Shown here: one piece after another, positions 3,460 through 61,986 of the stretch
How positions within the stretch are numbered: the stretch's first letter is position 1
Layout: each line of letters opens with the position of its first letter
Source of the DNA: Candidatus Latescibacterota bacterium
GTDB taxonomy: Bacteria; Latescibacterota; CBDEFO01
Length of the DNA: 64,000 nt
Direction of reading: 5' to 3'
NCBI GenBank assembly: GCA_965237525.1
Contig: CBDEFO010000007.1
Coordinates: forward strand, 128,001 to 192,000
Program-made: the position numbers and the translations under genes
The notes under the pieces: model-generated
Database searches by the model: none
Told to the model about the DNA's origin: nothing
What the model saw: only the letters and a program-made list of their open reading frames with translations

Positions 3460-3538
3460 GTATGTTACCTCCCCTTTAAAATTTTCAGGCAAAGGGGGCT
3501 AAGGCAGTAGGGACTTTCCCTTATCCTCAGCCTTCGCC

Positions 3539-13200: not shown

Positions 13201-13564
13201 AATGTGGACGATTGCCAGTACATATTTGTGATCGTGTCGTCGTTCGTATCGTCAACGAACGGCAACCCACCCAACGGGCCTGTGGTAGTCTCCTCTAACC
13301 TTATTTCGTCTATGAACCATCCGTTCCCAACTGTGGCATCGCCATCTGGCCACAGCCAGAATTGAACGAGTATCTCCCGCCCTCTCCAGGGAGTCAGGTC
13401 TATCTTCTCCTGGACCCAATCGCTGGACCCAGTTGCCGTATACAGGTTGGTCCAGCTCGACCCGGAATTGGACGAGACGCGAACGTAGACAAAATCCCCC
13501 TGATTGCCGGAGGTAGCCTGCTCAAGACTATACTTTTGCCAGAAGCTCAACTGCGGCTTGTTAG

Positions 13565-40452: not shown

Positions 40453-40849
40453 TATGCTTGACACTGTCAGGCTATATTAAAATCATCGGAGGAATTACAG
40501 AAAGTGACGGAGTGATTCAAGCAAACTAAGTATTTACTTACAATCGTTTAGCAGGTTAGGAACGCGTCGCATTTTTTTAAAATAGGCGCGCAAATGCTCA
40601 ATTTTTCGAGTGATCTTAAATTCAAGGGGGGTGCCATTCGAGATCTTTACGGTTTAAATTGTCCTGCTGTTCTGGAAATCTCTAGTTGCTAAAGCTCTTA
40701 AGGATTTTCAAGTCAGCTTTCAACAACCAGTAATACACGTGAGGGAGGATAAGTCAACTATGCCAGGTTCATTAGCAGAAGACACAGACGGTGCGTTTGA
40801 GAAATCGAGTCGTTTTACTTTTCAACCTTACGGTTCAAGGAGGGATGAC

Positions 40850-43800
40850 ATGAAAGCGAAGGCGGTGGTTGGTCTTTTAGCGGTTGGCTTGTTCATATTC
40901 GGGATGACTTTCTCTGCGGATGCTGCCTTAACGCAAGCTGTTACGAATGACGTAGCAACCACTCCGACGCGTGAAGGCAGTGATGTGACTTACGGTGGTG
41001 CGACTCTCGCTCCAGTAACGGGGCCGGTTTCTGTCCTTAGGGTCGTCCTTCAGTCTGACGTAACAGCCGAGACTATTAGTACCGTCAAGGTGGATATAAA
41101 CAGGGTATCTGGACAAGGCCTTCCCGACTCATACGTAGCTGCCCTTACTTCTGGTGATGACAGCGGCATTGCCATATACGTGGACGATGGTGATAATGTC
41201 TTTGAGCGCGTAGCAGATACTTTTGCCGGTGCTGGGACTATCAACTTTGATCCGGTGTCCGGCAATGAAGGTATTCGTACAGTCACCATAGAAAATCCTA
41301 CTACTGACGACGGTGCCCTCCCTGTAAATCCTGGGCCGTTGACGCTATTCATCGTTGCTAGAGGTGGAAGTGATTTAGATGCCGACGATCAGTTTACGTT
41401 CAGCACGGACCTCTCAAACTGGGTATTCAGCGGGGCGACGGCAGGAACTGGAACTGCAACTGCTACTTCAGGGACCATAACCGGCGATGTAACCGCTCCT
41501 ACTATAGCTGATGGCAACGTGGTGACGCTGGACGATGACTCCGATGGACTTTTGGACGGCGTACAGATAACCTGGAGTGAGGAAATCGCCGATGTAAGCT
41601 TTACCAGCTTTTCCAGTGCGACTGCTTCTTTTGCCGTAGCAGTTGACACTGAAGTCGGGGCCTACCAAAATCGGCAGATAGCCCAAGACGGTCCTCCTCG
41701 CACTCCGGATACCATAAACAACAACGTCACCTTCATCACTTTTGATGAACAGGTAACTCTTGGGACGAAGACCCTCGATCAGCTTGATACGGACGCGACT
41801 CCCACTTTAAATATGGCTACGGCTACCGTAACGGACCTTGCAGGCAACCCCATCGCCGGTGTCTCACTTACTTCGGTTGACAAAGCCCCTCCTGTCATCT
41901 TCCAGAGCCTCTATCTGGACGCCGATGATAATGGCAGGATAGATGAGGTGCAGGTCCAGTTTTCCGAGAACATTGATGATGCTACTTTTGGCAACAACAA
42001 CGGCTGGACTGTCGCTGGGTTTAATTTCAAAGACGTTGCCAATGATCCACCTGTCCTCATAGGTGCGGCTTCTTCTGCAGATCCTCCGACTATACCAACT
42101 GAAGGCACTACAGATGTCCTCAGGCTCCTGCTTGAAGAGGAGACTGACTTCTTCAGCACCGGTATAGATCTAGCAGGGGACCAGGTGACTTACAGAGCGA
42201 CTGTTGGCGATGTAGCAGATCTAGCGACTCCGCCTAACGAGCTTAATAGCGTGTTCGTAGGAACCGCTCCGGAGGTGGACAGAGCCAGTCCGATTTTGAT
42301 TGATGCGAAAACTGGAGACATTATCGCTACCCGACCTCGAGGTCAGATTGATCGATACGAGATTAAATTCAGCGAACCTGTGGAAGCGCGAGGTGAAGAA
42401 GCCGACTTTATCCTTTTGGACGACTTTGCAGTTGACTCTCTGAACGGCAACCTCACCAACACGCTTACTCTTGTAATAAGGGAGAGAGGCTTTATCGATA
42501 CGGGAGTCACACCCGGGCTCGGCGTAAATATAGACATAGACGCTAGTCCGAATGCAGGTATTGTAGACTTGGCCAAGGATAGGTTAGGAGCGAATGCCCC
42601 GAACGGTTTGGTTGCTCCTTCGTTAAATGTAATAGCCGGCGCAGTTACCTTCAATCTAGTGCCTGACGCAAAGCGACTCGACGGCGCTCCGCCCCTGATA
42701 AGGAGGGATGCTGTGATCACGGGAGACAGCAACAGAGATGGCAGGCTCGATCGGCTACTTGTGGAGTTTACTGAGGTCATGCCCGGTGATCAGGACTATG
42801 TCAGTGGTGTCACTATCGGAGGAATTGCTCCTAGTGGAGCGTCGCGGACGGCAGTCGATCAGGTGACCTATAGGTTGACAGTAGCTCCAGGCGCCCTGCC
42901 TAACACAGGCGTTGTACTCGACTATCTCTATCGCAGCGCTAGGGGAGCCATATCAGATCCCGCCGGGCTGCAGTTGCTGGATGTCCGGAGCGCCGATATT
43001 GCGGAGCTGGATGGAGCTGCTCCGGTCCTCGTGACCGCTGTCACAGATGACGCTGACGGAGACGGAAAAATAGATAAATACGTTATCACTGCAAGTGAGC
43101 CTATATCGATAGCTGGTGGTGCGGCCTCGACAGGAATAGGCCTGAGAGTTGAGGATCGCCCCGATACACTCGCCACCCTGGATGCAACCAAGAAGATTAT
43201 CACCTTATTCTTCCGTGAAACAGCCGCGACAACGCTGGACGATTTCGATACTGGAGTGACCCCTGACGTTACTTATACTAGAGTGCAGGATGAGCGTGGC
43301 GAGATCAAGGATCTTTCAGGCCCCGGCGGTACGCCAAATATTCCTATGACGAACATACTCGACGACGACGCTGTCCTGACGGAGACTGACGGCGCGAGGC
43401 CCGTTATTGTTGTCGCTGATGATGATACCTCAAGCACAGGGGACGGAAACAGCGATGGCTTTATAGATCAGTTGACGGTGACCTTCAGCGAGCCTGTGAC
43501 GGCGGACAGCGGTAACATCGGCATAACCGTTGATAAAACTGCTTCGGGCGGCAACAAGGTAACCCTCAGTGAAGTCTTGAGCGGCGGCGGAACCAGGGCT
43601 GTGGTCTTCCGCGGAACTTCCGACAGATCCGGAAATCCCGATACGGAGGACATTCCGTTCTTTGACTACGTCGAGGCCGGATCTATTCGCGATATGTCTG
43701 CTGCTGCAAATGCACTTCGAGCTGCTGCCGATCAGATAACGATAGATGAGGCAAGGCCCGTTATTGTCTTTACGACGGGGAGGGATAAAGGACTGCGGAT

Positions 43801-46775: not shown

Positions 46776-47429
46776 ATGGCAAGATTAACGATTATAGGAG
46801 GTGTTGCCCTCTGGGTCTTATGCGCGGTTGGTATGGCTTCTGCCGGGCAGAATTCGGGGGCTACCATAGTTTTGGATCTTGATGCCGCAACTGCAGGCAA
46901 TCAGGCCAACGACCTTCAGCAGAACGTCGGAGCGAGTGAGGCTGTTGACATAGCGGTTTACGTCACAGGAGCGCAGAATCTGAAGGCATATCAGGTAGAC
47001 CTCATGTTCGACACGACTAAGGTTGAGTGGAATTCTGCCCTTACGGGCGATGCGTTTGGTAGAGAGGAGACGAACTTTCTGGGTTCGGAGGGAGGGGCAT
47101 TTGTCTTCGGGAACCTTCTTAAGGCGGGTACGACAGACGTAGTCAGAATACTAAACGGAATTACCGGCGCGACAGAAGCAAACGCCCCTGAGGGGGATGG
47201 CCTCATAGGTGTTATCAGCTTTACAACACTGGGAGGATTTGACACCAACGCTGATGCAATCTTCACAGTGGTGTTCTTTGAGTTTTCAGATACGAATAAT
47301 GACCTGGACACATTCGACATGCCCTCGCCTCATGACCCTGGTATTCGCGTTTTCCTAAATAAGAGAACAGCGGTTGAAGCCGACACTTGGGGGAGGGTAA
47401 AGGAGCTATTTTCGGGTCTGCTCAGGTAG
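46776..47429 (+). CDS. Secreted cohesin-like protein with TWGxxK tail
   Basis: Signal peptide MARLTII; QNLKAYQVDLMFDTTKVEW...GDGLIGVISF resembles the cohesin of the upstream gene; ends TAVEADTWGRVKELFSGLLR. Confidence 0.7.
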   Translation: MARLTIIGGVALWVLCAVGMASAGQNSGATIVLDLDAATAGNQANDLQQNVGASEAVDIAVYVTGAQNLKAYQVDLMFDTTKVEWNSALTGDAFGREETNFLGSEGGAFVFGNLLKAGTTDVVRILNGITGATEANAPEGDGLIGVISFTTLGGFDTNADAIFTVVFFEFSDTNNDLDTFDMPSPHDPGIRVFLNKRTAVEADTWGRVKELFSGLLR

Positions 47430-47660
47430 GCTATCTTGTACGGAATAGTAAGATATAGGCTTGCTTGAGACCTTATGAACATCCTCAAGAAGGCACAGAT
47501 GGAGATCGAGGCCGAGCGGCGAGCGCTTGAGTTCTCACTTACTTGACTTTTAAGGCTGATTTTCGTATCCTACACGTGGCCACAACTCTAGCGGCAGGTT
47601 CGGCGTGGGCCCGCTGCGGAGGAAACTGCTACTACTTACTTTCTAGAAAGGGAGATAATC

Positions 47661-48638
47661 GTGAAAAAGACCTCAATCCTGGTGGCTCTTCTTGTCGTGG
47701 CGCTCGGAGGCGTGCCGAGCCCGGCGCAAGGGCAGGGCTGGTATCTGGGGAGCGAACTGGGCGGGCATGTGGTCCCGGCCTTGGGCTTCACCGGGCTGTC
47801 CAACGACGTAGCGAGTGTGTGTGACGAGTTTATCAATCCGGAATATGCAACGGTGACACAGACGGCGGGATATGAAGCCTACAACTGCACGGGACCGGAT
47901 CGCAGTGATGACTGGGCTAATGAGTTCGCCAGGGCCACGGGCCTCCAGGCCAGCTGGGTGCTGGGGTATCGCTTCGGGGCCGACGCCTCTGGCCCGCGGT
48001 GGCACCACGTGCGGACGGAGATGGAATACTTCTACCGAGCCACCGCCTACGACCAGAGCGAAGCCGTTCCCGGCATCGGCGGTGGCTCGGGCAGCGTCAC
48101 CGCCGACAAGCTGAATCAAGAAATTCGGAAGGCGACGGACTACCTCGGCCGTGTGACCGCGCACACCCTGTTTGCCAACCTGTATTGGGACGTTCGGACG
48201 CGCAGTCGGCTCACGCCCTATGTCGGCGTGGGTGTGGGGATCGGGTGGACGGCGGTGTCCTACGGCAGTCTGTGGTCGAGGAACGCCAATGCCACGGCGA
48301 TTACCACCGGCGAGGGGCTGCCCAACGTGGACGAGATTCGCCAGAACCTAGCAGCCACGACAAGTAGCTTCCAGGGCATCCTGTCCGACAAGCTGATCAG
48401 CGAGCAGGTGCTGGTCGGAGTGAACTACGCGCTCACCGAGGGTCTGTCGGTGGGTGTCAAGGGTCGCTGGGTCCACGTTGCGGCCTTCGAGAGTCCCCAA
48501 GGCAGCCTCATCTGGGATCCGCTGCGTAGTCACGTCCCCAATCTGCGGCGCGATGGGAGCGAACCCGTCACGGGGCAGGTGCTGACCGACGCCAGCACGC
48601 TCTGGGATGTGGGCCTGAGTCTCACGTACCACTTGTAA
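47661..48638 (+). CDS. Outer-membrane beta-barrel protein (opacity/OmpA-membrane-like), passenger
   Basis: Signal peptide; WYLGSELG, VLGYRF, LFANLYWD, PYVGVGVG and terminal GLSLTYHL. Visibly more GC-rich than the flanks. Confidence 0.8.
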   Translation: MKKTSILVALLVVALGGVPSPAQGQGWYLGSELGGHVVPALGFTGLSNDVASVCDEFINPEYATVTQTAGYEAYNCTGPDRSDDWANEFARATGLQASWVLGYRFGADASGPRWHHVRTEMEYFYRATAYDQSEAVPGIGGGSGSVTADKLNQEIRKATDYLGRVTAHTLFANLYWDVRTRSRLTPYVGVGVGIGWTAVSYGSLWSRNANATAITTGEGLPNVDEIRQNLAATTSSFQGILSDKLISEQVLVGVNYALTEGLSVGVKGRWVHVAAFESPQGSLIWDPLRSHVPNLRRDGSEPVTGQVLTDASTLWDVGLSLTYHL

Positions 48639-48744
48639 AGCGGGACGCTGGGTCCCCGGCTCGCCGGCCACCCCCTTCCACGGGGAGGTCCACCGTAAAG
48701 CGCGCCTCGTAGCCAGTAAGGGTGTGCCGAACGGCAACGATGCC

Positions 48745-50400
48745 TTAGGGGGCGCTCAGCGCCTCGGGCGTGGCCTTCCACAACGGAATAGCAAGATATG
48801 GGCTTGCTTGAGACCTTAGCAAGTTGTAGTGGTACCGTGTGCAAATTGTCTTCGACGGCAAGTCCAGTTTGATCTGTTGCTTGTGTTCCTTACGCCCCAA
48901 CCATAGGGAGTAGGGAGTATCGAAGGTTTTCCCCTCAAATATCTCGGCTACCGTCAATAACAGCATCCTGGGAAACAGACGCCCCTTGGCCTCCAAATGT
49001 CCAGCTTTAGCCATTTCCCTATGAAAATTGCGTTCTTTGGTTTGGCCCAGAGGTTCAAGTATAATCAGGCCAGCCATTAAGGCGCCCCAACCCTCAAGGA
49101 CTCCACGAAGTCGCTGCACAGCGGCCGTCCCGACATTCCTTCCGCCCTTGACCTAAATAATCATGCTTTGAAGCTCGCCTTCTTCTTCTAGCTCAAAATA
49201 CAAACGTCCATCTACTCCACCGTCCGCCGTGTTCTTGTCTGTTACAAAGCCGTCTACCGTTTCAACCGCCCAGGTTTGGAACGTGTACTTATCCTGCTCC
49301 CAGAGATGCCTTGCGCCCTCTACATTCTCAGGAAGTCCATCTATTTCAAAGTCACGTCCTTCTTTCAGGCCAGGACGATCTTTCAATCTGATTGCGGACA
49401 CTCGCTTAATGGCGTGTATGGCAATGTCCGTACCGATCCATTGGCGACCTGGTCTGTGCGCTGCCTCTAAAGTGCTTCCGCAGCCGCAGAAGGGATCAAA
49501 AATAACATCTCCCTTTTTACTGCTCGCCTCTATAATTCTATGCATAAGTTTCAGTGGTTTTTGCGTAGCATAGCCTGGCCTCTCTTTTGATCCGGGATTC
49601 AGAGGGTCAATCTCCCAAACATCAGGGCAGGGCCTATCTCCCGTTTTCTTCGTCTGATCTACTCTTTCCAGTTCAGGGGAAAGCCGACCGGATGATATTG
49701 CGCCTTCAACTTTTCTTTTATTGTAAACTCTTATTCTTGAACCTCTTTCCCCATTTCTTTCAATGGTATCTGTGCCCCAGCCGCGCTCTATATCTTTTCT
49801 TACTCGATCCCCTGGAACAGTTAAAACCTTGAAGGTGTGCTTGTCGGTTTTCGTGTAGAACAGAATTACATCATGTTGAGACTGCCATTTTTTGGCTTTC
49901 GCCGGCCATCTATTTTTATAATACCAAGTAATTTCGTTGCGGAAATTAGAGTGATGAAAGATAGAATCCATCATCACCTTGACATAATGACTTGCCGTGG
50001 GATCACAGTGCAAATATATCGATCCAGTAGGTTTTATAATGCGCTTGATCCAAATTAATCTTTCTGTCATATAGGCAAGATAGGCCAGCAATTCGGGTTG
50101 CGTCTCCCTAAGAGCATTCATCCATAAACGCCAGAACTCAGTAACGCTATCTTCAATGCCTGACTCCCTCATCAACACGGGCATCTGTCGAATGATGCGC
50201 TCCTTATCTTGATCGAGTGTCCAGGCATCATTGAACGCCCTTACTTGATCTGGCAAGAGCCGTCCCGTCTCATCCTTGTAGATGCTATTGTAGGCACTTT
50301 GGGAATTGAACGGCGGATCGAGGTAGACCAGATCAACACTGGCCAAGCGGATCTTATCCCTGATAATGGTGAGGCAATCCCCGAAGTAAAGGCGATTCAC
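48745..50400 (-). pseudogene. N6/N4 DNA methyltransferase fused to a C-terminal restriction-endonuclease-like domain, interrupted by TAG at 49153-49155
   Basis: YLDPPF and FDPFCGCGST motifs, then TADGGVDG...MII*VKGG continuing in frame into ORF 48745..49119. The GTG start overlaps the transposase stop (GTGA). Confidence 0.8.
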
Positions 50401-51272
50401 GAGAAGCACGCCACCAGAAAGTTCTCAAAAGCATGATTGCTTTTGCGGTGGTTGTACTTAAAGCAGGCCTTAGGGACATAGAGGGGCATGTAACGCTTTG
50501 AATAGTGATGGTGCGATCCATACCAAGCCCGTTTTAGCAGCGACCAGACACCCTCTGTCGTATTGGTATGAATACCGCCCTCGGCATAGGTTTGACTGTG
50601 GTCGATTACTGAACGGGAGACGAACTTCTCAACCGCATTATAGGCGCGATATTCGTCTGTGATGAGGTGGGAACCGGCAGGATCTACAGTACCTTTGATG
50701 AATTTCAAGACGCCCTTGCCGGTTAGGTCTTTGGCTGCTTGGGCAACTACGCGGCCGCCGCGTTCTACGGCCCCGATAACTGGCGTTTTGCTGGTGCCAC
50801 GGCCCCTTGGATGCTGGGTCTTGTCGTTGCGGTGCCGCTTTCGAGGCTTCCCGCCGACATAGGTTTCGTCAGCTTCTATGCTGCGATGTAACATTCTGGC
50901 GCCGTGCTTAGACGTCATTTCGGAACGGATGCGCTCTTGCATGAAAAGTGCCGTTTGGTGTGTCAATTCAAGGTCTCTGGCAAGCTGGTAGCTCGACAAG
51001 GATTTCTTGGCATTGACCATCAACCCGATAGCCATGAACCATTTTTGAAGGGGGACTTTCGTCTTGCTCAGGATGGTGCCGGACAATACATTGAAGCTTG
51101 ACTTGCAGTTGTGGCAATTCCATCGACCTATGCGGTCGCCGTCCATCCTGCGCTCAACCCTGGGGTTTTCGCAATGCGGACAAGTTGGAACGCCGCACCA
51201 GCGCACTTTTTCAAGGTGCTCAATGCAAGCTTCCTGATCAGGGAAAAGGCTAAAAACGGTGAGTAAATTCAT
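50397..51272 (-). CDS. IS1595-family (ISXO2-like) transposase
   Basis: Zn ribbon CPHC...CHNC; IEADETYVGG, LITDEYRAY and HTNTTEGVWSLLKR. Confidence 0.93.
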   Translation of the reverse strand: MNLLTVFSLFPDQEACIEHLEKVRWCGVPTCPHCENPRVERRMDGDRIGRWNCHNCKSSFNVLSGTILSKTKVPLQKWFMAIGLMVNAKKSLSSYQLARDLELTHQTALFMQERIRSEMTSKHGARMLHRSIEADETYVGGKPRKRHRNDKTQHPRGRGTSKTPVIGAVERGGRVVAQAAKDLTGKGVLKFIKGTVDPAGSHLITDEYRAYNAVEKFVSRSVIDHSQTYAEGGIHTNTTEGVWSLLKRAWYGSHHHYSKRYMPLYVPKACFKYNHRKSNHAFENFLVACFS

Positions 51273-51415
51273 GGCTGATCTCCTTTACAATTAAGATACA
51301 AAAATCAGCCTTAAAAGTCAAGCCCATATCTTGCTATTCCGATCTTGTATTACAATAATCGCTGTTGGAAATAACCACGCCTCAGGTCATCGTCTCCATC
51401 TAAAGCAGTACAGTT

Positions 51416-51444
51416 AAAAAGGCTATGTTGTGACATAGCCTTTT
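51416..51444. terminator. Bidirectional intrinsic terminator
   Basis: AAAAAGGCTATGT-TGTG-ACATAGCCTTTT. Confidence 0.7.
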
Positions 51445-51481
51445 CATTTTGATGCACTGTGGACTTATGCCAAGCCTACTT

Positions 51482-51946
51482 TTACCTGAAAAGCTCCTTG
51501 ATCTTTCCCCACGTGGTCTTACCCACGTCTGTAGGCTTGAGCAGCCTCTCAACGACGGATGTTATCGAATCGTATTCGTATCCCTCCTGGCTGTAGGTGA
51601 TGTTCAGATCGCTGTCGAGAACTACAGTGTAGTTGCGCATCTTTGCGGATATGTCAGTGATCAGCCGATAGGAGACATCAAGACCTTCGGTCAGATGGGG
51701 CGTGGAGCTTACGCCTATTATCTGCACGTCTTTGTTTCTGTATTTGGCCCACATACCATTTTCGATGGATAGCGCAGTCTCTCGGTCATCACCGAAGAAA
51801 TGGACAACTATGATCTTATCCGGATAACCCTGGAGGATGTCCTGCTTTAAGTAATCCCCGAACACTGCACCTTTATCGGGGCTTGGGGCTCCGGGAACTG
51901 CGGCAAAGAGTATAAGAAGGGGTATCAACAAATAGATGGCTTTCAC
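51482..51946 (-). CDS. Secreted Cys-free redoxin/thioredoxin-like protein with TWGKIK tail
   Basis: SD GGAGGT plus GTG start; signal peptide; KIIVVHFF...KYRNKDVQIIGVS...YRLITD...VVLDSD resembles the AhpC/TSA fold; ends TTWGKIKELFR. Confidence 0.6.
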   Translation of the reverse strand: MKAIYLLIPLLILFAAVPGAPSPDKGAVFGDYLKQDILQGYPDKIIVVHFFGDDRETALSIENGMWAKYRNKDVQIIGVSSTPHLTEGLDVSYRLITDISAKMRNYTVVLDSDLNITYSQEGYEYDSITSVVERLLKPTDVGKTTWGKIKELFR

Positions 51947-51987
51947 TGCTGAACCACCTCCTGAATAAGTAGACAGTAGGGGTTGAA

Positions 51988-53275
51988 TATCAAATGAAAT
52001 CGGTGCACCTAATTTGATCTTTGTTTAGAGTATTAGTAGATTAAGTTGAGTTGATTGTCTTAACTTTAATCTACGGAGTCCTATGGACAAAGAGAGATTG
52101 GCCGTATTAAGACAAGAAGTCAACGAGATGTATTTTAAGAAAGAAATGTCAAAGCGAGAAGTTATCAAACAAGCGAGAGTTTCCAATGATTTCGTTACGG
52201 CTTGGACTAAATCTCCGGATCAGGATTTTGCCATGGATAATCGGGGTTGGCCAAAAGGAAAAAGGCAAAAATTGGCTAAAGTTGACGAACAGAGAATCAA
52301 AGAGATTTACCATAGCTTAGAGGACGATCCTTATCAGTTCTATTCAGGAGCCACTGTTATTGAACAAGAATGGAGGAATCGATATTCTAGCACCCCTCCT
52401 CCGTCGTTGCCGACTATCGGCAGAATGCTTTCAGATTTAGGACTTTCCCAGAGAAGGAAGAAAGGTAAAAACAAGGGTGCATCTCGTTATCTTTGTTATC
52501 CAGAGTATACCATTTACTATCTTTCAGGAGGCAGAGTCCTAGAATCAGACTTTATTGGTAAAAAGTATCTTACCGGCAGAACTGAGCCGGTCAACTTCGT
52601 TGGATTTTCCTTTAAGAAAGAGCCTAAGTTAAGGTATTTTCGGCGGGTTGACGGTCAAACAGCAACTAACTTTATCGAGAAGTGTCAGTCTTTCTTTGAC
52701 AGGTTTGAAAAACCAGATTTCGTTAAGGTGGACAATTGCTCGGCGACTATTGGCAGTGTTTCAGGTAAAAGGAATGTCAGCAAAGCAATGCAGTTTCTCT
52801 TGAAAAATCAAGTGATTCCGATATTTGCCGTTCCCAGAAGGCCCTTTTCTCAAGCATCTATAGAAGGCAACAATTCTGTATTTTCAAGGAAGTTCTGGAA
52901 CAGAATTCAGTTCAAAAGCTTACAAGAAGTTGATCAGAAGTTAGAATGGTTTAATCTTTCATCACAGAGATACACCGGCTACCGTCCACCTAAGCAAGAG
53001 AAGTCAAACGAGAAAGATTTCATTCCCAAGACCTATTTTATCAGACAAGTCAAACAGGACACAGAACAGACAGATAAAGCCTTTATCGATGTCCTAAATG
53101 AGAAAGTATCTCTTCCCTCCTCTTACACCAACTACTTTGTCCTGGCTGAATGGAACCTAAAAGAAGAACAATTATACATCCATTTTGAAAAAGAACAGAA
53201 ACCAAAGATTGTCCAAAACCTATCATTCAAGATCAATCAAAGATCGAAAGAGAAGTGCACCGATTTCATTTGATA
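51988..53275 (+). mobile_element. Insertion sequence with an integrase-core DDE transposase (family not assigned; IS481/IS630-like)
   Basis: Perfect 21-bp IRs TATCAAATGAAATCGGTGCAC / GTGCACCGATTTCATTTGATA around a single ORF. Confidence 0.88.
52083..53273 (+). CDS. Transposase (HTH plus rve-like DDE)
   Basis: PSLPTIGRML; candidate catalytic residues in ESDF, KVDN and SIEGNN; stop codon lies inside the right IR. Confidence 0.8.
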   Translation: MDKERLAVLRQEVNEMYFKKEMSKREVIKQARVSNDFVTAWTKSPDQDFAMDNRGWPKGKRQKLAKVDEQRIKEIYHSLEDDPYQFYSGATVIEQEWRNRYSSTPPPSLPTIGRMLSDLGLSQRRKKGKNKGASRYLCYPEYTIYYLSGGRVLESDFIGKKYLTGRTEPVNFVGFSFKKEPKLRYFRRVDGQTATNFIEKCQSFFDRFEKPDFVKVDNCSATIGSVSGKRNVSKAMQFLLKNQVIPIFAVPRRPFSQASIEGNNSVFSRKFWNRIQFKSLQEVDQKLEWFNLSSQRYTGYRPPKQEKSNEKDFIPKTYFIRQVKQDTEQTDKAFIDVLNEKVSLPSSYTNYFVLAEWNLKEEQLYIHFEKEQKPKIVQNLSFKINQRSKEKCTDFI

Positions 53276-53326
53276 AATAACCAGTAGTCAGTAAACAGGG
53301 CACCTCTCCTCTCCCTGTCTGTCCAG

Positions 53327-54382
53327 CTATTCGGTTCTGAGCATATTGCCTTCCTTGATATCGCTGTAGCCTTCAATTATCCTTGCTTTGGAAAAGTGCT
53401 TGGCAGTGACTTCAATGACCTGGATAGTTCCTACCTTTATCTCATCGGTTTTTCCCACTACCTTGCCCGTGATAGGGTCTGAAAGCTCTTCTCCCTCTTG
53501 ATATACACTATATTTGTCTCCTGCCTCAACTCCATCGGCGATCCCTATGTTGACATACACCTCATCGTCTTGGACCCAGAGTACGACAGGATCCGAGACT
53601 TCGGGCTGAGGCGGTGGTTCTATGTATTCTTCGATTTTGGCTTTGATCTGTTCAGAACACCTTGTAAAGGCTATGCCTACTACAGTATCTTTGAGCTCCT
53701 CTGACTCGAATTCATAGTTTCCCATCTCAAAGAACTCTTTGTTCCTCTGTCTTGCTTTGTCATCCCGATAACTGGCTCCAAGTTCGTTGTCATCGTATTC
53801 CCCAACTCCCTCGATTATGCCGAGTTCCATTCCGTCCACAACGCGAAAGATCGTCAGTTTTACATTGACATATGCTCCGTACCTGAAGAATCCGGCGAGT
53901 GGAACTCCAGCTCTGAAGCGAGTTACGTTAAAGTTTTCGATCTCTCCGGTCAGGACGAAGTCAGCTTTGACGTCTCGACCTATCTGGATGGCTCTTTCGT
54001 TTTTAAATTTACCGAGAGTCTCTTTTCCATCCTTCAATCGCTCCAATATTGCGCCATGCGGAACTGTTTTGTAGAAGGGATTTTCCGACAGTTTCTGAGC
54101 GATAGCTTGAGGAACGCTGTTTACTATGTCCCAGGTCCCCTTTAATTTGGATCTATCCTCCAAGGGGAGTATAAGCAGAGTCTGGGACCCTGTGGAGTGC
54201 GAAAATAGAGTGTCCTGTACAGCCTTGCCATTCGTCTTTTGTACGTTTGGGGAGGTCTGAACCGATGAATATCCCAAAGCGACCAGAGCCGACAGAACGC
54301 CAACGCCGAGTATTCTGGGTAGTCGACTGTTAGGACTACTTTTCAAAGCTGCGCCAGAACCTGTCTTGCCTCTTTTGTTCAT
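53327..54382 (-). CDS. CsgG/FlgT-like envelope protein with a FlgT C-terminal-like domain
   Basis: AIQIGRDVKADFVLTGEI (CsgG/TolB-N-like) and VYVNIGIADGVEAGD...DPITGKVVG (FlgT_C-like). Confidence 0.65.
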   Translation of the reverse strand: MNKRGKTGSGAALKSSPNSRLPRILGVGVLSALVALGYSSVQTSPNVQKTNGKAVQDTLFSHSTGSQTLLILPLEDRSKLKGTWDIVNSVPQAIAQKLSENPFYKTVPHGAILERLKDGKETLGKFKNERAIQIGRDVKADFVLTGEIENFNVTRFRAGVPLAGFFRYGAYVNVKLTIFRVVDGMELGIIEGVGEYDDNELGASYRDDKARQRNKEFFEMGNYEFESEELKDTVVGIAFTRCSEQIKAKIEEYIEPPPQPEVSDPVVLWVQDDEVYVNIGIADGVEAGDKYSVYQEGEELSDPITGKVVGKTDEIKVGTIQVIEVTAKHFSKARIIEGYSDIKEGNMLRTE

Positions 54383-54394
54383 ATCAGTTCACCT

Positions 54395-55675
54395 TTACGC
54401 CGCTTTTCTGATTTTAGGGAGGACGTATGGTCCCTTCGGTATTACCGCTATTTTAGCATCTCTACCGGATTTTTGAAGGGCCTGCTGGACTCCGTCCTCT
54501 ACAGATTCTACAGGTTGAACCATAATGCTTTTAGCTCGTTGGGAATCTATGCCTTCGCTGTATAAGAGTACCTCGCCCCTTTTGAGGGCTTTACACATCT
54601 CCTGCACCTGCCATTGGTCGTGGCAGAAGAACATGGGGCTTTTTATGGTTTGAAGGAAGTTTTCGGGATCTTTTGTGTCATTAAGGAGGCGGGAAAACTC
54701 CGAACTCCCGATACCTTCAGTGCATCGGGAAGCTACAATAAGCGTCCCATCTTGCTTCAGCACGGGTAAAGCGGCGGTCATACCCTTTATGGTCTGGTAG
54801 AATGTGAGGTCGAGAGGGTATCCCGCGCTGGTAGTTATCACTATATCGGCGAGCTCATCAAGATAGGCGGTAGATTGTCTTTCGACGAATTTTACGCCTG
54901 CCCAGTGGGCGGCTTCAAGTTCGCCACAGAAGAGTCCGGTTATCTGTCTTTTTCCGTTGATGGCTACATTGAGGCTAAAATCGACCCCGGCTTTGTGTGC
55001 AACTTCTAACATCTGTTGATGTACAGGGTTGCCATCAATTATGCCTTCAGCTGCCCGGGGCGATGAGAGTATTTCATATCCGTGCAGGACTTTGACAGTT
55101 TCGACTCCGCATATCCCGGGGCAGATAGCCTTTCTCCCGCCTGAGTAGCCCGCCATAAGGTGAGGTTCAATCAGGGAGGTGGCGATCGTGAGATCGGATT
55201 CGAGGTAGAGCGTATTGACATAGACAGGCACGCCGAACGAAGTCTCACCGAGGTGGCTTAGCGTATCTTTTTCACTGGATAGGTGATTGACTATCTTGTA
55301 GTTTCGGACTATATGCTCCCCGACCATTGTGCTGAGCTCTTGCTCCGTATTGGGTCGATGGAGTCCCGTCCCGACGAGGATGGTGATATTTTCTTTGGGG
55401 ATGTCAGAGTCCTGGAGGACCTTCAGCATTGGTGGCAAAATAGTTTCGTTGGGCACAGGCCTGGTGATGTCTGAGATGACGATACAGGCGTTTCTTTTGC
55501 CATGTGCAAGCTCCCAAAGCGGTGGCGAGGATGCAGGGTTTTCAAGGCCCTCCAAGACGGCTGATTGTGGGTCCTGTAGAGGTTCCACTGGTTTTATGTC
55601 GAGAACGCCCTCTAGATTCTGATCGGGAAGATCGACCCAGAGTCCTTCTTTTCCATAGGCGAGTTTGATTTTCAA
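54395..55675 (-). CDS. larA: Nickel-pincer-dependent lactate racemase family protein
   Basis: IVISDITRPVP, GTGLHR, IVNH, IEPHLMAGYSGGRKAICPG, GYPLDLTFYQ and DQWQ. Probable TTG start at 55675. Confidence 0.88.
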   Translation of the reverse strand: MKIKLAYGKEGLWVDLPDQNLEGVLDIKPVEPLQDPQSAVLEGLENPASSPPLWELAHGKRNACIVISDITRPVPNETILPPMLKVLQDSDIPKENITILVGTGLHRPNTEQELSTMVGEHIVRNYKIVNHLSSEKDTLSHLGETSFGVPVYVNTLYLESDLTIATSLIEPHLMAGYSGGRKAICPGICGVETVKVLHGYEILSSPRAAEGIIDGNPVHQQMLEVAHKAGVDFSLNVAINGKRQITGLFCGELEAAHWAGVKFVERQSTAYLDELADIVITTSAGYPLDLTFYQTIKGMTAALPVLKQDGTLIVASRCTEGIGSSEFSRLLNDTKDPENFLQTIKSPMFFCHDQWQVQEMCKALKRGEVLLYSEGIDSQRAKSIMVQPVESVEDGVQQALQKSGRDAKIAVIPKGPYVLPKIRKAA

Positions 55676-55809
55676 ATCTCTAATCTCCCTACTGCTGAGT
55701 GGATCGAGGTTTCTGCCCCTCGCAATGTCAGGAGACACGCGATGGCATTGTAATGCATCTATGACAGCCACAGCAAACGAAGCAATCTCGTAGAGAGGGT
55801 ACTGCCCCT

Positions 55810-56192
55810 CCTAAACCGTGTACATCCACAAAGGAGTCGCCCAACACGAAGTCCTCGGCTATTCCTAGAGCGCCTCTGAGTCCCAGGGGGAATTCCTACC
55901 CTGGGGTTATTGTCTGCCGGGTGTAAAAGAGATTTACCATTGTGTTCCCGGTTCTAAATGCTCTAAAAGATGGAGTTTGTTGTCATCAAACAGCGTGTGC
56001 AAAAATCCAGGATCTTTATCGAAGTGATCTTCTACGGAACGCTTACTTTTTCCTGTGACAAATGGTAAATTCTTTGACTCCCTGTCGGGTCATCTCCTCG
56101 ACCGTCTGCTGGCCTACGGGCTTTATCCCGACGGGGAGCATCACCTTGGGCTGAGATTTTGTACCAGGCTGTAGTTTAGTGCCCAGTTCAGC
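55810..56192 (-). pseudogene. galU: Decayed UTP-glucose-1-phosphate uridylyltransferase fragment
   Basis: Manual translation: AELGTKLQPGTKSQPKVMLPVGIKP...TVEE, a frameshift, FVTGKSKRSVEDHFD, then LFYTRQ...PLGL...AEDFV. No intact start. Confidence 0.7.
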
Positions 56193-56330
56193 TTATGTTT
56201 TCCCTTGACAGCTTGGGTTTTATGTATTAAAGTTCGCTCTATCAATCGGACAATCTCGTACAAAATATAACCTTGGGGCTTGGAAATGTCAAGCTAAAAT
56301 GGTCTGATGTAATATATCTGATATGTACTC

Positions 56331-56561
56331 TTGAATTTAGGGGGAGTCTTTATCTGTCAGATAATCTTATATCCGGGCAAGGATGGTTTTTGGATATTAG
56401 AATGTTTCAGCCTTCCAGGATGTATAAGTCAGGGAACGACAAGGGAGGAGGCACTAAGGAATATCAAGGAGGCTATCGAGTGTTACATTGAGAGTTTGGA
56501 AGAGGATGGTCTGCCGGTGCCCCCTGATAGAATTGAGGCTATGGTGGTGACGATTGAATAG
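56331..56561 (+). CDS. hicB: HicB-family antitoxin; native start codon probably lost
   Basis: ILYPGKDGFWILECFSLPGCISQGTTREEALRNIKEAI...EEDGLPVP. The codon after SD GGGGAG is ATC rather than ATG. Confidence 0.75.
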   Translation: MNLGGVFICQIILYPGKDGFWILECFSLPGCISQGTTREEALRNIKEAIECYIESLEEDGLPVPPDRIEAMVVTIE

Positions 56562-56774
56562 ACTTCCAACACTGTCAGGAAAAAAGTTGATCAAGCTTCT
56601 ACAAAAGACCGGATTTTACGTACAACGACGGAAGGGGAGTCATATGAAATTGAGAGGGATGATCCCTTCTGCCAGGTTGTCGTTCCTGATCATAGGACCT
56701 TAGAGAGAGGCACGCTGAGAGGAATCATCAGACAGACAGGAATGTCCGTTGATTAATTCATCAATCTCGTATAG
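56554..56774 (+). pseudogene. hicA: HicA-family toxin, frameshifted and with a premature stop
   Basis: TTG start, then NRLPTLSGKKLIKLLQKTGFYVQRRKGSHMKL, a frameshift, DDPFCQVVVPDHRTLERGTLRGIIRQTGMSVD*FINLV. Confidence 0.8.
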
Positions 56775-57164
56775 AGACCATCGTAGAGCGCGAAGGAGAT
56801 AGGAATCTCTTGCCATCTGTGTCGGCGAATACTCCGATCACTTGAAAAATGCCGCAAACTCCTAAAATAATTGCTCATACGCTCAAAAAAAGATTGACCT
56901 TGCGACAAGAATGTAATAAATTGATATAACACGAAATCCTAGATGCTCTAAACGTCTTATTCTTCGAGCAGCCATACTCGTTGTAGCAGCTTTGGTTCTC
57001 TAATGAAGTGTGGGAACACCGAATCTCTCTGGAAGTCCGCTTGATCAGGATCTAATCAGAAAAAATTTGAACTTAGTGTTCTAAATCACAAAAAATCTTA
57101 TCCGGATGTCTTATAATATTATTTGATTAATCTCTTTATCAACAGAAAAAGGGGACATCTTTCG

Positions 57165-58049
57165 ATGAAATTAGTCACGTTTGATTATAAGAAGAAAGAG
57201 AATTTCGGAGCTTTACTAGGGCAGGAGAATATTGTTGATTTAGGAAGTGTAGCCGGATCTGTAATAGAACTTTTAGGGATGCGGGATGAGGGAATAGAGA
57301 GAGCGCGCAGGGCGGTTGAGGAAAATGAGCCGGCATTGAAGTTGAAGGATGTGACCTTGAAAGCCCCTGTGCCAAGGCCTTCTAAGCTTTTGTGTTTGGC
57401 TGGGAATTACGCAGAACATATAAGAGAGGGAGGTGGAGAAGTGAGCGAGAAGGAAAAGACGACCCCGCGCGTGTTTATGAAACCTCCTTCCACAACGGTG
57501 ATAGGCTCAGGGCAGCCCATAATCCTGCCTAAGAATGCCAACAAGATAGATTGGGAGTGCGAAATTGGAGCTGTGATAGGAAAGAACGCGCGTTTTGTGA
57601 GCGCAGATGAGGCTCTGGATTATGTTGCTGGTTATACTATCGTAAACGATGTATCGGAAAGAGCGTTGAAGATCGAAAAGGACAGAGAGCCGAGGGACGG
57701 AGACGGTTGGTTCGACTGGCTAAACGGCAAGTGGTTCGATACGTTTGCCCCTATGGGTCCCTGTCTTGTGTTGAAGGATGAGATGCAAGACCCTCAAAGC
57801 TTAAGGATTACTTTAAGGGTGAACGGAGAGACAAAGCAGGATTCCAATACCAGTCAGATGATATTTACTGTGGCTGAGCTGGTGGAATGGGCGTCCACGT
57901 TAGTGACGTTGGAGCCGGGCGACGTTATATCGACGGGGACACCCTCGGGTGTAGGATCAACTACAGGGACGTTTCTTTCTGCGGGAGATGTTGTAGAGGC
58001 TGAGATCGAGGGGATAGGAATACTGAGGAATCCTGTGGAGAAAGGGTAG
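57165..58049 (+). CDS. Fumarylacetoacetate hydrolase family protein
   Basis: AGNYAEH, DWECEIG, GYTIVNDVSER, GKWFDTFAPMGP and GDVISTGTPSGVG. Confidence 0.93.
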   Translation: MKLVTFDYKKKENFGALLGQENIVDLGSVAGSVIELLGMRDEGIERARRAVEENEPALKLKDVTLKAPVPRPSKLLCLAGNYAEHIREGGGEVSEKEKTTPRVFMKPPSTTVIGSGQPIILPKNANKIDWECEIGAVIGKNARFVSADEALDYVAGYTIVNDVSERALKIEKDREPRDGDGWFDWLNGKWFDTFAPMGPCLVLKDEMQDPQSLRITLRVNGETKQDSNTSQMIFTVAELVEWASTLVTLEPGDVISTGTPSGVGSTTGTFLSAGDVVEAEIEGIGILRNPVEKG

Positions 58050-58092
58050 GCTTTCAACGGCTGTTGGATCACCCATTAGCTTGGACGAACAT

Positions 58093-59046
58093 ATGAATAT
58101 AAAGTTCTGGGGCGTGAGAGGTTCCATCCCAACTCCCATTGGTCCTAAGGAGATTCGAAAAAAGATAGAAGACGTCCTCTTTGAGGCAAAGGACATAAAG
58201 TTTTCCAGCCGGGAAGACGTAACTAAGTATGTGGAGGGACTGCATTATCTGCAGCGAGGCACAGTTGGGGGCAACAGCTCCTGCGTGGAAGTCCAGACGC
58301 AGACTGGACATGTTCTTATTCTGGACGCGGGCTCGGGGATCGTAAAGCTGGGAGCAGAATTGATGAAAGGGGATTTCGGAAGGGGTAGCGGGGTAGCTCA
58401 CATATTTTTGTCTCATACTCATTGGGATCATATTATAGGTTTTCCGTTGTTTACTCCTGCGTATATTAAGGGAAACAGGATAATCTTTTACGGCGTGCAC
58501 GAAGATTTAGAGAAAAGGCTAAGACACCAGCAAAATGCCCCCGACCATTTTCCGGCGTCCCTGGAATTGATGGAAGCTGATATAGAATTTGTTCAGCTTA
58601 AAGGGAAGAAAAAGCTGAAGATAGGTAGCATGACTGTGGATAGCAAGGAGCTTTACCATCCGGGCGCAGCTTACAGTTATAGGATCACAGAAAATGAGAA
58701 GACCTTGGTCTATGCGACAGACGGTGAGTATAAGGTGGAGTGGGAAAATGTGCAGCAGTATCATAGCTATTATCAAAACGCCGATGTGTTGATCTTCGAC
58801 GCTATGTATACTGCTGGAGAGGCGATCGACCGCGAGGACTGGGGTCACAGCACCTCATTCATAGGAGCAGACATAGCGTCTATTACGGGGATCAAAAAGC
58901 TCGTATTGTTTCATCACTATCCCGCACGAGATGATGAGGCTATACATAGGATTTTGAAAGAGACAGAGGCGTACTGGAACGATCTCTATTCGGACTTTGA
59001 TTGTGAGATACTCATGGCACACGAGGGATTAGAAATAGAAATATAA
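58093..59046 (+). CDS. MBL-fold metallo-hydrolase
   Basis: FWGVRGSIPTP, GGNSSCV, SHTHWDHIIG, WGHS and LFHHYP. Confidence 0.92.
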   Translation: MNIKFWGVRGSIPTPIGPKEIRKKIEDVLFEAKDIKFSSREDVTKYVEGLHYLQRGTVGGNSSCVEVQTQTGHVLILDAGSGIVKLGAELMKGDFGRGSGVAHIFLSHTHWDHIIGFPLFTPAYIKGNRIIFYGVHEDLEKRLRHQQNAPDHFPASLELMEADIEFVQLKGKKKLKIGSMTVDSKELYHPGAAYSYRITENEKTLVYATDGEYKVEWENVQQYHSYYQNADVLIFDAMYTAGEAIDREDWGHSTSFIGADIASITGIKKLVLFHHYPARDDEAIHRILKETEAYWNDLYSDFDCEILMAHEGLEIEI

Positions 59047-59137
59047 CGTTTTTACTCCCAAAATATTCTTCGATACTTTTCGGGGCTCCCGAGTATATTA
59101 TTGCGAAAGCTCCTTTATCGAAGATCATCTTAGTACC

Positions 59138-59171
59138 GGCGGAAGCCATCAAGGTTTCCGCCTCTTTTTTT
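59138..59171 (+). terminator. Intrinsic terminator
   Basis: GGCGGAAGCC-ATCAA-GGTTTCCGCC followed by TCTTTTTTT. Confidence 0.75.
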
Positions 59172-59379
59172 GTTTCGCCGGATAGCACGATAAAGAAAAC
59201 AGATAATTACGATCCTGATAATCACAAAAACTCCTTGACATCCGCGAAAATATAGTTTTAATTGTACATAAAGAGTGATTGTGCTGTTTTTGTGCGTTGT
59301 CAGTGCAAGAATATCCAAGAAGACAAGTCTCATGTAGCTTGTTGATGGGAGTTGTCTTGTAAGGAGGTGATGAAACAAA

Positions 59380-60483
59380 ATGACAAGACGAGCAGTGAAA
59401 CCTTCCACAGTTCTGGCTACGATAACTTTCGTTATCTTGGGTATCGCTGCACAAATACACGCCCAGATGTCCGCCCCAATTATCACTAATTACGTCAGAG
59501 CAGTGGCAGTACTACCTGGAGGGAACGCGGTCTATGTGGGCATTGAAGAATTTGAAACGGGCGGGGTCCTTCGAATAAATGTAGATACTGGAGAAGTACA
59601 AGCGATGAACGAGGGTTTAACAGACCTGAATCTCCGCAGCCTCGTCATTGATCCTTCCGATCCATCACGGATCTATGTAGCTTCGGGAGAGGGTATCTTT
59701 CGCAGCGAAGATGGAGGAAGACACTGGATAGGGATCAACCAGGGGATATCTTCGGGTGGTATAAATGAAATCTGGGTAAGTTCCCTTAATTCGGACTTGC
59801 TATTGGCACAAGGTGCAGTCGGCTCTGTTTACCGTACAGATGATGGAGGGAACCAGTGGCGTTTGTTGTATGTGCCTCGTATCGACTATGGAAGTAATTG
59901 GGAGACTGCAATCGAAGCGACCAGTAACGGCAGTACTATCTTTGCCTTCAAGGCCGGCGTACCTTTCCGTCGGAGCACTGATGGTGGTGAGACCTGGGAG
60001 GATCTTTCAATAGTGAGTAGGGCCTTCGCGTTCTCTTCGGACGAGAAAATCTTTTACGCTGGCAAAGGATTAATCAGAGATGAAAGAGCGGTGGTCGTAT
60101 ATCGGAGTCTGGACGAAGGAGATACGTGGGAGGGACTCGAGTATGGTCCTCCGATCGATACTGAAGAATATCGGCTTCCTCAATGGGGAAACACTATCTG
60201 CCTGCTGCCAGATCCACACGCTCCTGGTGTTATCTATGCGGGTACTACAGAGGGGGTGTTTTACACGACTGATGGGGGAGTTGTCTGGCAGCCTTTGGGC
60301 AGTCAACCGTTGAACTTTGAAGAATGGAACGGTCTTGTTTTTGCACTGGCCTTAGACCTGGATAGATCGCGTCTTTACGTCGGGAGGCCTGACGGTCTGT
60401 TCTTCGTGCCGCTTCCAGAGTATCCTGATCCGACCGCTGTGGAGGCTAATTCGTGGGGAAAGATTAAAAGCCTTGTGAAATAG
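59380..60483 (+). CDS. Secreted BNR/Asp-box (VPS10/Ycf48-like) beta-propeller with SWGKIK tail; the last codons come from the IS
   Basis: Repeated S/TxDGGxxW; ends PTAVEANSWGKIK, with SLVK* read from the IS end starting at 60468. Confidence 0.8.
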   Translation: MTRRAVKPSTVLATITFVILGIAAQIHAQMSAPIITNYVRAVAVLPGGNAVYVGIEEFETGGVLRINVDTGEVQAMNEGLTDLNLRSLVIDPSDPSRIYVASGEGIFRSEDGGRHWIGINQGISSGGINEIWVSSLNSDLLLAQGAVGSVYRTDDGGNQWRLLYVPRIDYGSNWETAIEATSNGSTIFAFKAGVPFRRSTDGGETWEDLSIVSRAFAFSSDEKIFYAGKGLIRDERAVVVYRSLDEGDTWEGLEYGPPIDTEEYRLPQWGNTICLLPDPHAPGVIYAGTTEGVFYTTDGGVVWQPLGSQPLNFEEWNGLVFALALDLDRSRLYVGRPDGLFFVPLPEYPDPTAVEANSWGKIKSLVK

Positions 60484-61986
60484 TTATGTCGCAGGCAGCG
60501 TCTGAAGCGCCGATTATGGGTCAAAGAGTAGCATATCGTATCGTTTTGCTGTGGAATAAGCAAAATAGTCTTATCAGAGTTCTGGTCAGCAAGGAATAGG
60601 AGCTGTTTGAAGAACAGGATGCACTGTCTTTGACAGACAGGGCACACATAGACGCTTTCCCCCTTCTTATGAAAGATACAAGCCTCTTGAGATTCTGTAC
60701 TGTTGCAACAAGATTCAACTGTTCATTCAGTGAGGCTGGTCCTCTGTAACGGGCTCGTCCCATACCGTGTTGTTGCCTGGCTTCAGCAAAGATATGTTCA
60801 CTGCGTTTACGGAGTCTCCGGGAGAGTTTGTAGTCAGCTGTTAATGAGATAGACCGTGCATGATTTCTGGCTTTCGCCTCTCGCACTTTTCTATCCCGTT
60901 CGGCCTGAATATGTGCTGAATTTGTCTTGTTTTTCCATGTAGGAATCGGTTCAATCTTCTCATCGGCTCGCAGAGGAATATGGGGTATGATTCCCCGGTC
61001 AAGTACATCAGCGATAAAATTACCAGAACCGTAACCGGTATCGGCACTAAGTGTCTGAATGTCTTTGGGCATGGTGTATGTTTCAAGGTCATCTACCATC
61101 TTAAGGGCACTTTCGGGCTCTGCTGTCCCTGTCGCCTGCGTGCCCTGAGTCTCAAGGATTACTCTGCTTTTTGTGTCGATCAGATCATGGCCCATAAACG
61201 AGAGAAAAGCCCCTTTGCCCTTCGATTTGCTGTATAAGCGCGCGTCGGGGTCTGTAGTCGAACGGTGTGTTTGGTTCGTCCACTTTTCACCATGAAAGTC
61301 TTTATCCTGAGGATGCCCGGACCTACCCTTTGTCTTATCACCTTCAAAACCGATTCCCTTGAGATAATCATCAAGAGAAACAGGGGGTTCTATCGGCTCA
61401 ATACTTTTCACTGAAGCATCAGCTTGTATCTGAGTGCCGTCGACACTAAGGTGTTTACCGCTCACAAGACCGACATCTATGCAACACTGGACTACCTGAC
61501 GCATTATCCGTTCAAACAACCCACTGGATGCCCACTTGTGATTGCGAAGCTTGTTGATCGTGCTCCTATCCGGAACCGCATCATCAAATGTCTGATGACA
61601 AAACAACCGATATGCCGCATGCATCCCCACTTCCTGACAGAGCCGATTCTCACTCAAATTATACAGATAGCCAATAAGGATCATTCGAACAACTAATTCA
61701 GGATCAATACCGGGTCTGCCATTGTCAGGGCAATAACAATCTGATACAACGTCTCGTACAAATGAAAAATCAACTGCCTCATCAATCTGACGAAGGATAT
61801 GATCCTCGGGAACTAAATCCTCCATCTGAAAATAGTGAAACATCGGATTTGTCTGTTCCTGCTTTTGTGGGGTCATTGTTTCCTCCATGTATAATATTAT
61901 CAATAACATAATATAATACATCGGAGCTGCTTTATCAATGCTTGTTTTATACTATTTTCTGAATCTAAGGGTTTTTCACAAGGCTT
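60468..61986 (-). mobile_element. IS1182-family insertion sequence, copy 3 (1,519 bp, intact transposase ending at 60521)
   Basis: Same IRs and near-identical sequence; the flanks TTAA (60464-60467) and CTAA (61987-61990) do not match. Confidence 0.93.

Follow-up and report, generated by a model that had tools for sequence, protein, structure and literature searches.

A short C-terminal tail of about 16 residues, hereafter the TWG tail, ends three otherwise unrelated proteins with signal-like N-termini encoded in a 64,000-nucleotide stretch of DNA from a Candidatus Latescibacterota bacterium (assembly GCA_965237525.1, contig CBDEFO010000007.1, positions 128,001 to 192,000; hereafter the window). 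We found that the tail is real, its occurrence at protein ends lying far beyond chance. On balance, and judging largely from predicted structures, it probably docks after Sec export in the pocket of LP-B, a tail-less NTF2-like lipoprotein whose close relative LP-A carries the tail itself. We arrived at this reading because the same helix is common to LP-A and to the tailed proteins (the cargo), and because of the pairing of a tailed with a tail-less lipoprotein, the operon in which both are encoded, and the co-distribution of pair and tail.

A C-terminal tail shared by putatively exported proteins

The preliminary description of the window had recognised one C-terminal motif on three signal-peptide proteins of different fold, and re-reading of their ends bore this out. 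A cohesin-like protein of 217 aa (46776..47429, + strand, from the ATG at 46776) ends in TAVEADTWGRVKELFSGLLR (47367..47429, +), a 154-aa protein (51482..51946, - strand) in TDVGKTTWGKIKELFR (51482..51532, -), and a BNR/sortilin-type beta-propeller of 367 aa (59380..60483, + strand) in TAVEANSWGKIKSLVK (60433..60483, +), each followed by the stop codon. Their bodies are unrelated (pairwise phmmer E 0.2-0.43), and each begins with a hydrophobic, signal-like stretch, as judged here and below by a crude hydrophobicity test and not by a trained predictor. The labels given to these proteins fared less well. Pfam Cohesin does match the first (E 0.0026), but at 18.4 bits it stays under the cut-off of 24.1, and the name "redoxin-like" for the 154-aa protein finds no support in Pfam or NCBIfam, neither of which assigns it a family. 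As to the propeller, the motif stands but its terminal LVK is not native, being derived from an inserted DUF772/DDE insertion sequence (IS) element (60470-61937; transposase at 60521..61921, -) that sits in the last BNR codons and replaces the native tail end; two tailed paralogues elsewhere in the genome run on as KSVFTEE at this point.

A profile built from 22 seeds was then searched against the genome, and the consensus TAVExx(T/S)WG(R/K)IKxxF was found to end 24 open reading frames (ORFs) of 11 families, with scores of 21-36 bits and the next match at 13 bits. Since the seeds had been picked for their terminal position, two independent checks were run, a motif count and a search of other genomes. 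In called genes of at least 100 aa, 76,560 terminal positions held 21 occurrences of [TS]WGx[ILVM]K and 1,183,709 internal positions held two, an enrichment of ~160-fold, and shuffling the last 26 residues of the 3,828 proteins produced 0-1 matches per round over 20 rounds. The five other genomes of the phylum that were searched gave 57 matches, one of which lies in a 23-aa frame; they represent 22 families, and in every match the tryptophan stands 8-15 residues before the stop codon. The signal test was passed by 42 of the 52 complete tailed ORFs from these other genomes and by 15 of the 24 in this one, fragments included, over a background of 31% (993/3160). Strict C-terminal position and co-occurrence with export signals, both of which the preliminary description had singled out for verification, were thus borne out.

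The W, G and K of the tail are invariant and their distance to the stop codon is fixed (mode 9 residues). As had been proposed, the tail is amphipathic (mean hydrophobic moment 0.42); it is also basic, with a mean hydrophobicity of -0.05, and no hydrophobic or transmembrane segment was found near the tailed ends. The earlier view that it lies outside known machinery also held, as no named Pfam or NCBIfam family matches it (0/22 tails in NCBIfam). One of the two internal motif matches, SSWGQIK, lies in a protein with no signal peptide (G000:C3:253225-254007). The largest tail family comprises 11 tailed ORFs of ~300 aa with a conserved DADHSGG word, arranged in tandem arrays and in some cases frameshifted (G000:C8:2017988-2022072, C4:527746-531216, C7:524222); none of the three members scanned matched Pfam, and the family includes one copy with a decayed tail (DTPGRVKSTL) and one copy with none.

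A tailed and a tail-less lipoprotein of predicted NTF2-like fold

A looser motif scan of the genome returned LP-A, a 199-aa lipoprotein (C8:1174671) ending in STWGELRARFLN. LP-A has two tail-less paralogues (LP-B), one encoded directly downstream and the other after secA, and the LP-A and LP-B profiles align with 99.7% probability. The LP-B copies lie at G000:C8:1453083-1453682 and at about C8:1175457-1176110. The LP-A family comprises at least 197 representatives at 50% identity, and in 131 of the 149 sequences examined a (T/S)WxxhK/R end comes right after the last strand, a proportion biased upward because the query carried the tail. The tails of LP-A (ELR/DLK) differ from those of the cargo (RIK/KIK). 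Neither lipoprotein of this genome matches a Pfam or NCBIfam family, the LP-A profile found no counterpart among solved structures (best E 0.1), and a word-based search with LP-A matched only LP-A itself. Of four loci returned by a single-protein scan of named genomes one was true, and the Atlas entries for the family are exclusively unnamed clusters, from Ignavibacteriota, Fidelibacterota and Eiseniibacteriota.

Foldseek placed the predicted fold of both LP-A and LP-B among the NTF2-like proteins. In the AlphaFold model of LP-A, residues 181-199 reach a predicted local distance difference test score (pLDDT) of 94-96 and form a beta-bridge two residues before the tryptophan (W-2) and a helix from the tryptophan onwards. 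The same bridge-plus-helix geometry is predicted for a naturally occurring LP-B orthologue whose tail is cargo-like (ESDSWGRVKSVF); pLDDT is 68/55 over its linker of ~20 residues and 91/86 over its tail. P0212, a 587-aa relative matching DUF4440, consists of three NTF2-like repeats, each followed by a TWG helix of its own, so that two of these helices are internal. Of the 40 highest-ranking covarying pairs across 183 sequences (~142 effective; a noisy and partly phylogenetic signal), 13 joined tail to domain, whereas three tail-permuted controls gave 2 each; the domain positions involved (L48/L49, D77/D80/F84/I87, E97/F100 and I157/S158/L163/L165) map to three helices and one strand. Covariation would place the tail at the pocket, the assignment to the pocket mouth following from general knowledge of the fold. 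At another locus (L085, G014:C23) four NTF2-like lipoprotein genes stand in tandem within a PorV operon, two of them tailed.

Operon, host secretion system and distribution

The lipoprotein genes belong to an operon that runs from a propeller bearing a type IX secretion system (T9SS) C-terminal domain (CTD) through two PorV-family barrels and an M50 peptidase to LP-A and LP-B; in most loci read, M50 directly precedes LP-A and the LP-A and LP-B genes are adjacent. No gene for a wide pore was seen next to the lipoprotein genes in the loci read. Elsewhere in the host, T9SS components were matched above cut-off by SprA (764 bits, on a different contig from the LP-A/LP-B locus), PorU (709 bits) and PorV_fam (244 bits). 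About ten PorV-family matches were found, seven of them over the cut-off, together with weaker PorQ-, PorW- and PorZ-like ones. GldN and GldM were not found in this 96.6% complete genome, by a GldN search that was positive in 62/251 other genomes and a GldM search lacking a positive control; GldK and GldL lay outside these searches. The host thus appears to have a T9SS with no Gld motor. Homologues of a protein from a neighbouring system carry the source label Latescibacterota, apart from one labelled Gemmatimonadetes.

The phylum was sampled through 151 genomes at least 80% complete, of which 81 have tails, 94 the lipoprotein family, 94 canonical PorU, 88 the CTD-bearing propeller, 149 M50 and 151 SprA. 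Nearly every tail-positive genome (80/81) has the lipoprotein pair, the exception being 86% complete and also devoid of M50. Conversely, families f7, f13 and f14 keep SprA, and in none of their 56 genomes were tails, lipoproteins, canonical PorU or propeller found; in 7/7 loci read from these families no lipoprotein genes follow the M50 gene. With SprA these families (G007, G026, G049, G054, G064, G122, G146) retain a C25 peptidase of ~1,900 aa, a reduced T9SS. The preliminary description had proposed looking for a co-distributed protease, and the neighbouring M50 peptidase is not one, being present in all 56 genomes of the tail-less families; it was accordingly rejected as a dedicated tail protease. 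SprA, being ubiquitous, was discarded as a determinant of the tail, and so were C25 peptidases in general (148/151), as only canonical PorU of ~1,300 aa tracks the pair. Canonical PorU co-distributes with the tail but also serves CTD cargo.

Two further groups of families stand apart. Families f4 and f6 keep lipoproteins and PorU, with cargo detected in 1/15 genomes (profile A3); a broader profile applied to five of their genomes found the tail of LP-A itself in each and one cohesin-like cargo. Family f12 has the most tails, up to at least 59 per genome, and most of its LP-B orthologues carry a degenerate tail of their own on a long linker. In a second sample, 251 genomes of the phylum holding an Ignavibacteria metagenome-assembled genome, the lipoprotein family is present in 91, of which 88 give two matches, the second ones listed ending before the tail; 90 of these 91 have PorU and one has GldN. 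Another 42 of the 251 genomes have PorU and neither GldN nor the pair. In 3/6 pair-positive genomes probed from this sample we found one small signal-bearing protein with a TWGS(I/L)KxMFR tail. These conserved, probably Ig-like proteins of 130-150 aa, encoded in an Ignavibacteria metagenome-assembled genome and two of its relatives (L090:1501-1908 (-), L106, L108), are possibly the ancestral cargo. Since the distribution patterns follow lineages, they may reflect very few events, and the absence of pair and PorU from three families may be a single loss. They also suggest that the helix originally belonged to LP-A and was passed on to cargo in certain lineages.

The tail and the T9SS CTD as apparent alternative tags

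Five other proteins of the window had been noted to end in a PNP(FN)-type CTD, one of them after a TAVVE linker, and both observations were reproduced. They are a protein of 1976 aa that has a type-A-like CTD, a weak match to dockerin and no TWG tail (40739..46669, +), encoded just upstream of the tailed cohesin-like gene; a protein whose TAVVE linker lies 12 residues before the CTD (2047..3492, -); a dockerin-containing protein (8454..9959, -); a further CTD protein (10257..13550, -); and an S8 peptidase with a divergent CTD (24681..26561, -). The reported exclusivity of the two tags extends to the whole genome, in which the 24 tail ORFs and the 96 ORFs that match a CTD profile do not overlap. 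Pfam and NCBIfam detected no CTD on the three tailed proteins of the window, nor was one detected on any of the 57 outside cargo; PF13585 (type B CTD, CHU_C) had no match on the tailed window proteins either. The tail was not found directly before the CTD in any of 44 canonical CTD proteins, the loose W matches in 2/44 being unrelated words, and it bears no resemblance to the CTD start (PNPFN).

The two tags nevertheless share passengers and linker. Three passenger families of this genome, the cohesin-like proteins, the largest tail family and CHRD, occur with either tag, as expected of alternative tags; the cohesin-like window protein has CTD-bearing paralogues at E 1e-17 and 2e-77. A TAV or TDI word lies 10-13 residues ahead of the CTD in 13 of the 44 canonical CTD proteins. 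According to PMC5445135, PorU prefers Ser/Thr/Asn/Asp followed by Gly/Ser/Ala, with a specificity called low, and the T/AV linker would fit this loose preference at the level of sequence. Shared linker, operon and interchangeable passengers together favour a link to the attachment complex. Of the proposal that the tail is a second tag parallel to the T9SS, exclusivity, helix and terminal position are upheld and independence is not, since the tail looks tied to the attachment arm of the T9SS. Fourteen ORFs genome-wide end in a dockerin-like motif with neither CTD nor TWG tail, as a third kind of C-terminal tag, and cohesin-like proteins with either of the other tags could carry or anchor them.

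A probable docking helix and its alternatives

In the mechanism that we favour, tailed proteins would be exported by Sec and the tail helix would then plug in trans into the pocket of LP-B, docking of helix on domain being predicted within one chain. LP-B would in this way tether the cargo at the envelope or pass it to the PorU/PorV arm of the motor-less T9SS; as dozens of cargo proteins face one or two receptor genes, a shuttle fits better than a permanent anchor. Most speculatively, PorU might cut the T/AV linker and the passenger be attached to lipid.

Several points weigh against this mechanism. All structural support, that is, two AlphaFold models and the covariation, lies within one chain. 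The pLDDT of the tail can be compared only with that of linker and signal helix (74-82), and the permuted control also destroys relatedness, overstating a covariation drawn from so few effective sequences. Retention of the pair in f4 and f6 with almost no cargo implies that it has a job that does not depend on many cargo proteins. The joint loss of pair and PorU may have been one event removing several T9SS parts together. The 42 genomes with PorU and neither GldN nor the pair indicate that lack of the motor does not oblige a genome to have the pair, which weakens the idea of an obligatory Gld replacement. In f12, the most tail-rich family, the degenerate tail on most LP-B orthologues could block the pocket, and the tails of LP-A differ from those of the cargo.

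A bolder version of the docking mechanism, which we hold to be possible but doubtful, makes the tail a third T9SS-linked signal class, in which a 16-residue helix derived from an ancient NTF2-like lipoprotein would complete the pocket of that lipoprotein's tail-less twin. The twin would bring cargo to the attachment complex (PorU/PorV) of a T9SS with no motor; there the T/AV linker would be cut and the passenger displayed at the surface. If so, the 14 proteins with a dockerin end and no CTD would find their anchor in the tailed cohesin.

The strongest alternative, though one we consider unlikely, is that the tail is a minimal signal for secretion or cleavage, read by another T9SS part (a PorV-family barrel, SprA or PorU); LP-A would then be just another tailed protein, one whose tail folds back onto it. 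The abundance of PorV-family matches would offer candidate readers, PorU and the lipoproteins track the tail equally closely, and both the TAV linker and the passengers are held in common with CTD cargo. This leaves unexplained, however, the domain-plus-helix repeats of P0212, the tailed/tail-less pairing and the covariation of tail and pocket; the tail also lacks the beta-sandwich fold that PMC5445135 gives as the T9SS signal.

A receptor might be dispensable altogether if the amphipathic, basic helix bound lipid directly or if an intramembrane protease cut it, and an M50 intramembrane peptidase gene does precede LP-A. We regard this as improbable: the invariant W, G and K and the fixed distance to the stop codon suggest a protein site, the mean hydrophobicity is near zero with no transmembrane segment, and M50 persists throughout the tail-less families.

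The docking helix could also have arisen in an ancestral LP-A:LP-B heterodimer or chain, the tail of A lying in the pocket of B and cargo docking in the freed pocket of LP-A to give a lipid-anchored chain B-A-cargo, similar to a helix-exchange assembly. The retention of the pair where cargo is nearly absent, the subtle difference between cargo and LP-A tails and the tail gained by f12 LP-B on a long linker are all in keeping with such a chain. The short linker of LP-A is nevertheless modelled in cis (pLDDT 96), and we give this arrangement little credence; the tail would still be read by an NTF2-like pocket, and only the binding paralogue would differ. Finally, a tail without function, left over from lost CTDs or shuffled genes, is highly implausible, for although many tailed ORFs here are fragmentary or IS-disrupted, the tail is conserved on 11 families here and 22 in the five other genomes at a fixed distance from the stop codon, and it is unlike the start of a CTD.

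Other features of the window

An ORF at 48745-51272, which we take from its DPPF motif to encode a DNA methyltransferase, has its start overlapped by an IS1595 transposase, and a LarA-family (lactate racemase) gene lies at 54395-55771. Transposase ORFs near-identical to that of the IS element in the BNR gene are numerous in the genome regions listed and often adjoin broken genes.

Discussion

No description of the tail was found in the open-access literature, although a family defined in subscription papers or supplements could exist; new here are the tailed/tail-less pair, the repeat protein P0212, the operon with PorV and the loss shared with canonical PorU. In lineages such as Latescibacterota and Ignavibacteria, SprA, PorU and PorV are present and the Gld motor is apparently missing, which puts in question how their envelope proteins are sorted. 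The tail would provide a clue to the localisation of many hypothetical proteins, most of all in f12. As a candidate peptide-receptor pair, tail and LP-B lend themselves to study as a synthetic peptide plus a soluble domain of 20 kDa, with no need to culture the host, and if their affinity were high they would make a compact natural tag-and-catcher pair.

The type A CTD of the T9SS (TIGR04183/PF18962; FlgD_ig PF13860) is carried by PorV and cut by PorU. The tail resembles it in being a C-terminal tag that accompanies export signals, the same passengers and the same TAV linker, in its co-distribution with canonical PorU and in having a candidate reader encoded in a PorV-family operon. It differs in consisting of ~16 residues and one helix, versus an Ig-like beta-sandwich of ~80 residues (about 70-80 aa), in matching no CTD model and being mutually exclusive with the CTD, and in occurring in a host with no detected GldN or GldM. 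A second C-terminal signal class with a dedicated reader beside the T9SS has a precedent in type B, but PorP/SprF-like shuttles are beta-barrels, whereas here a single helix would be read by a small lipoprotein of NTF2-like fold. The type B CTD itself is, according to PMC12618676, a folded domain of ~100 residues with five motifs and cognate PorP/SprF shuttles.

The tripartite CTERM-like signals (LPXTG, PEP-CTERM, GlyGly-CTERM, MYXO-CTERM) are, like the tail, short portable C-terminal motifs found on unrelated exported proteins and expanded in certain lineages. In these signals the motif is followed by a transmembrane helix and basic residues and is served by a dedicated enzyme. The tail has no transmembrane helix or basic cluster after its motif, and among the enzymes profiled no dedicated sortase-like one tracks it: M50 fails in this respect, and canonical PorU, which does co-distribute, also serves CTD cargo. 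The tail is thus not a type A CTD, a type B CTD or a tripartite CTERM signal.

In chaperone-usher and type V pili, a terminal element completes the groove of a partner domain (donor-strand or fold complementation). The present family likewise has members with element and groove, with groove only and with element only, and completion of the groove is supported in cis by the models, the covariation and the repeats of P0212; the difference is that a helix would enter an NTF2-like pocket in place of a beta-strand entering an Ig-like or pilin fold, and the sequences are unrelated. LP-A and LP-B share their predicted fold with the NTF2-like/SnoaL-like superfamily (DUF4440 PF14534, matched by P0212; SnoaL_3 PF13474), from which they differ as lipoproteins and in the terminal helix of LP-A, predicted to cap the pocket. 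By analogy, the tail would act as a C-terminal sorting tag that has a cognate reader, possibly in the manner of fold complementation.

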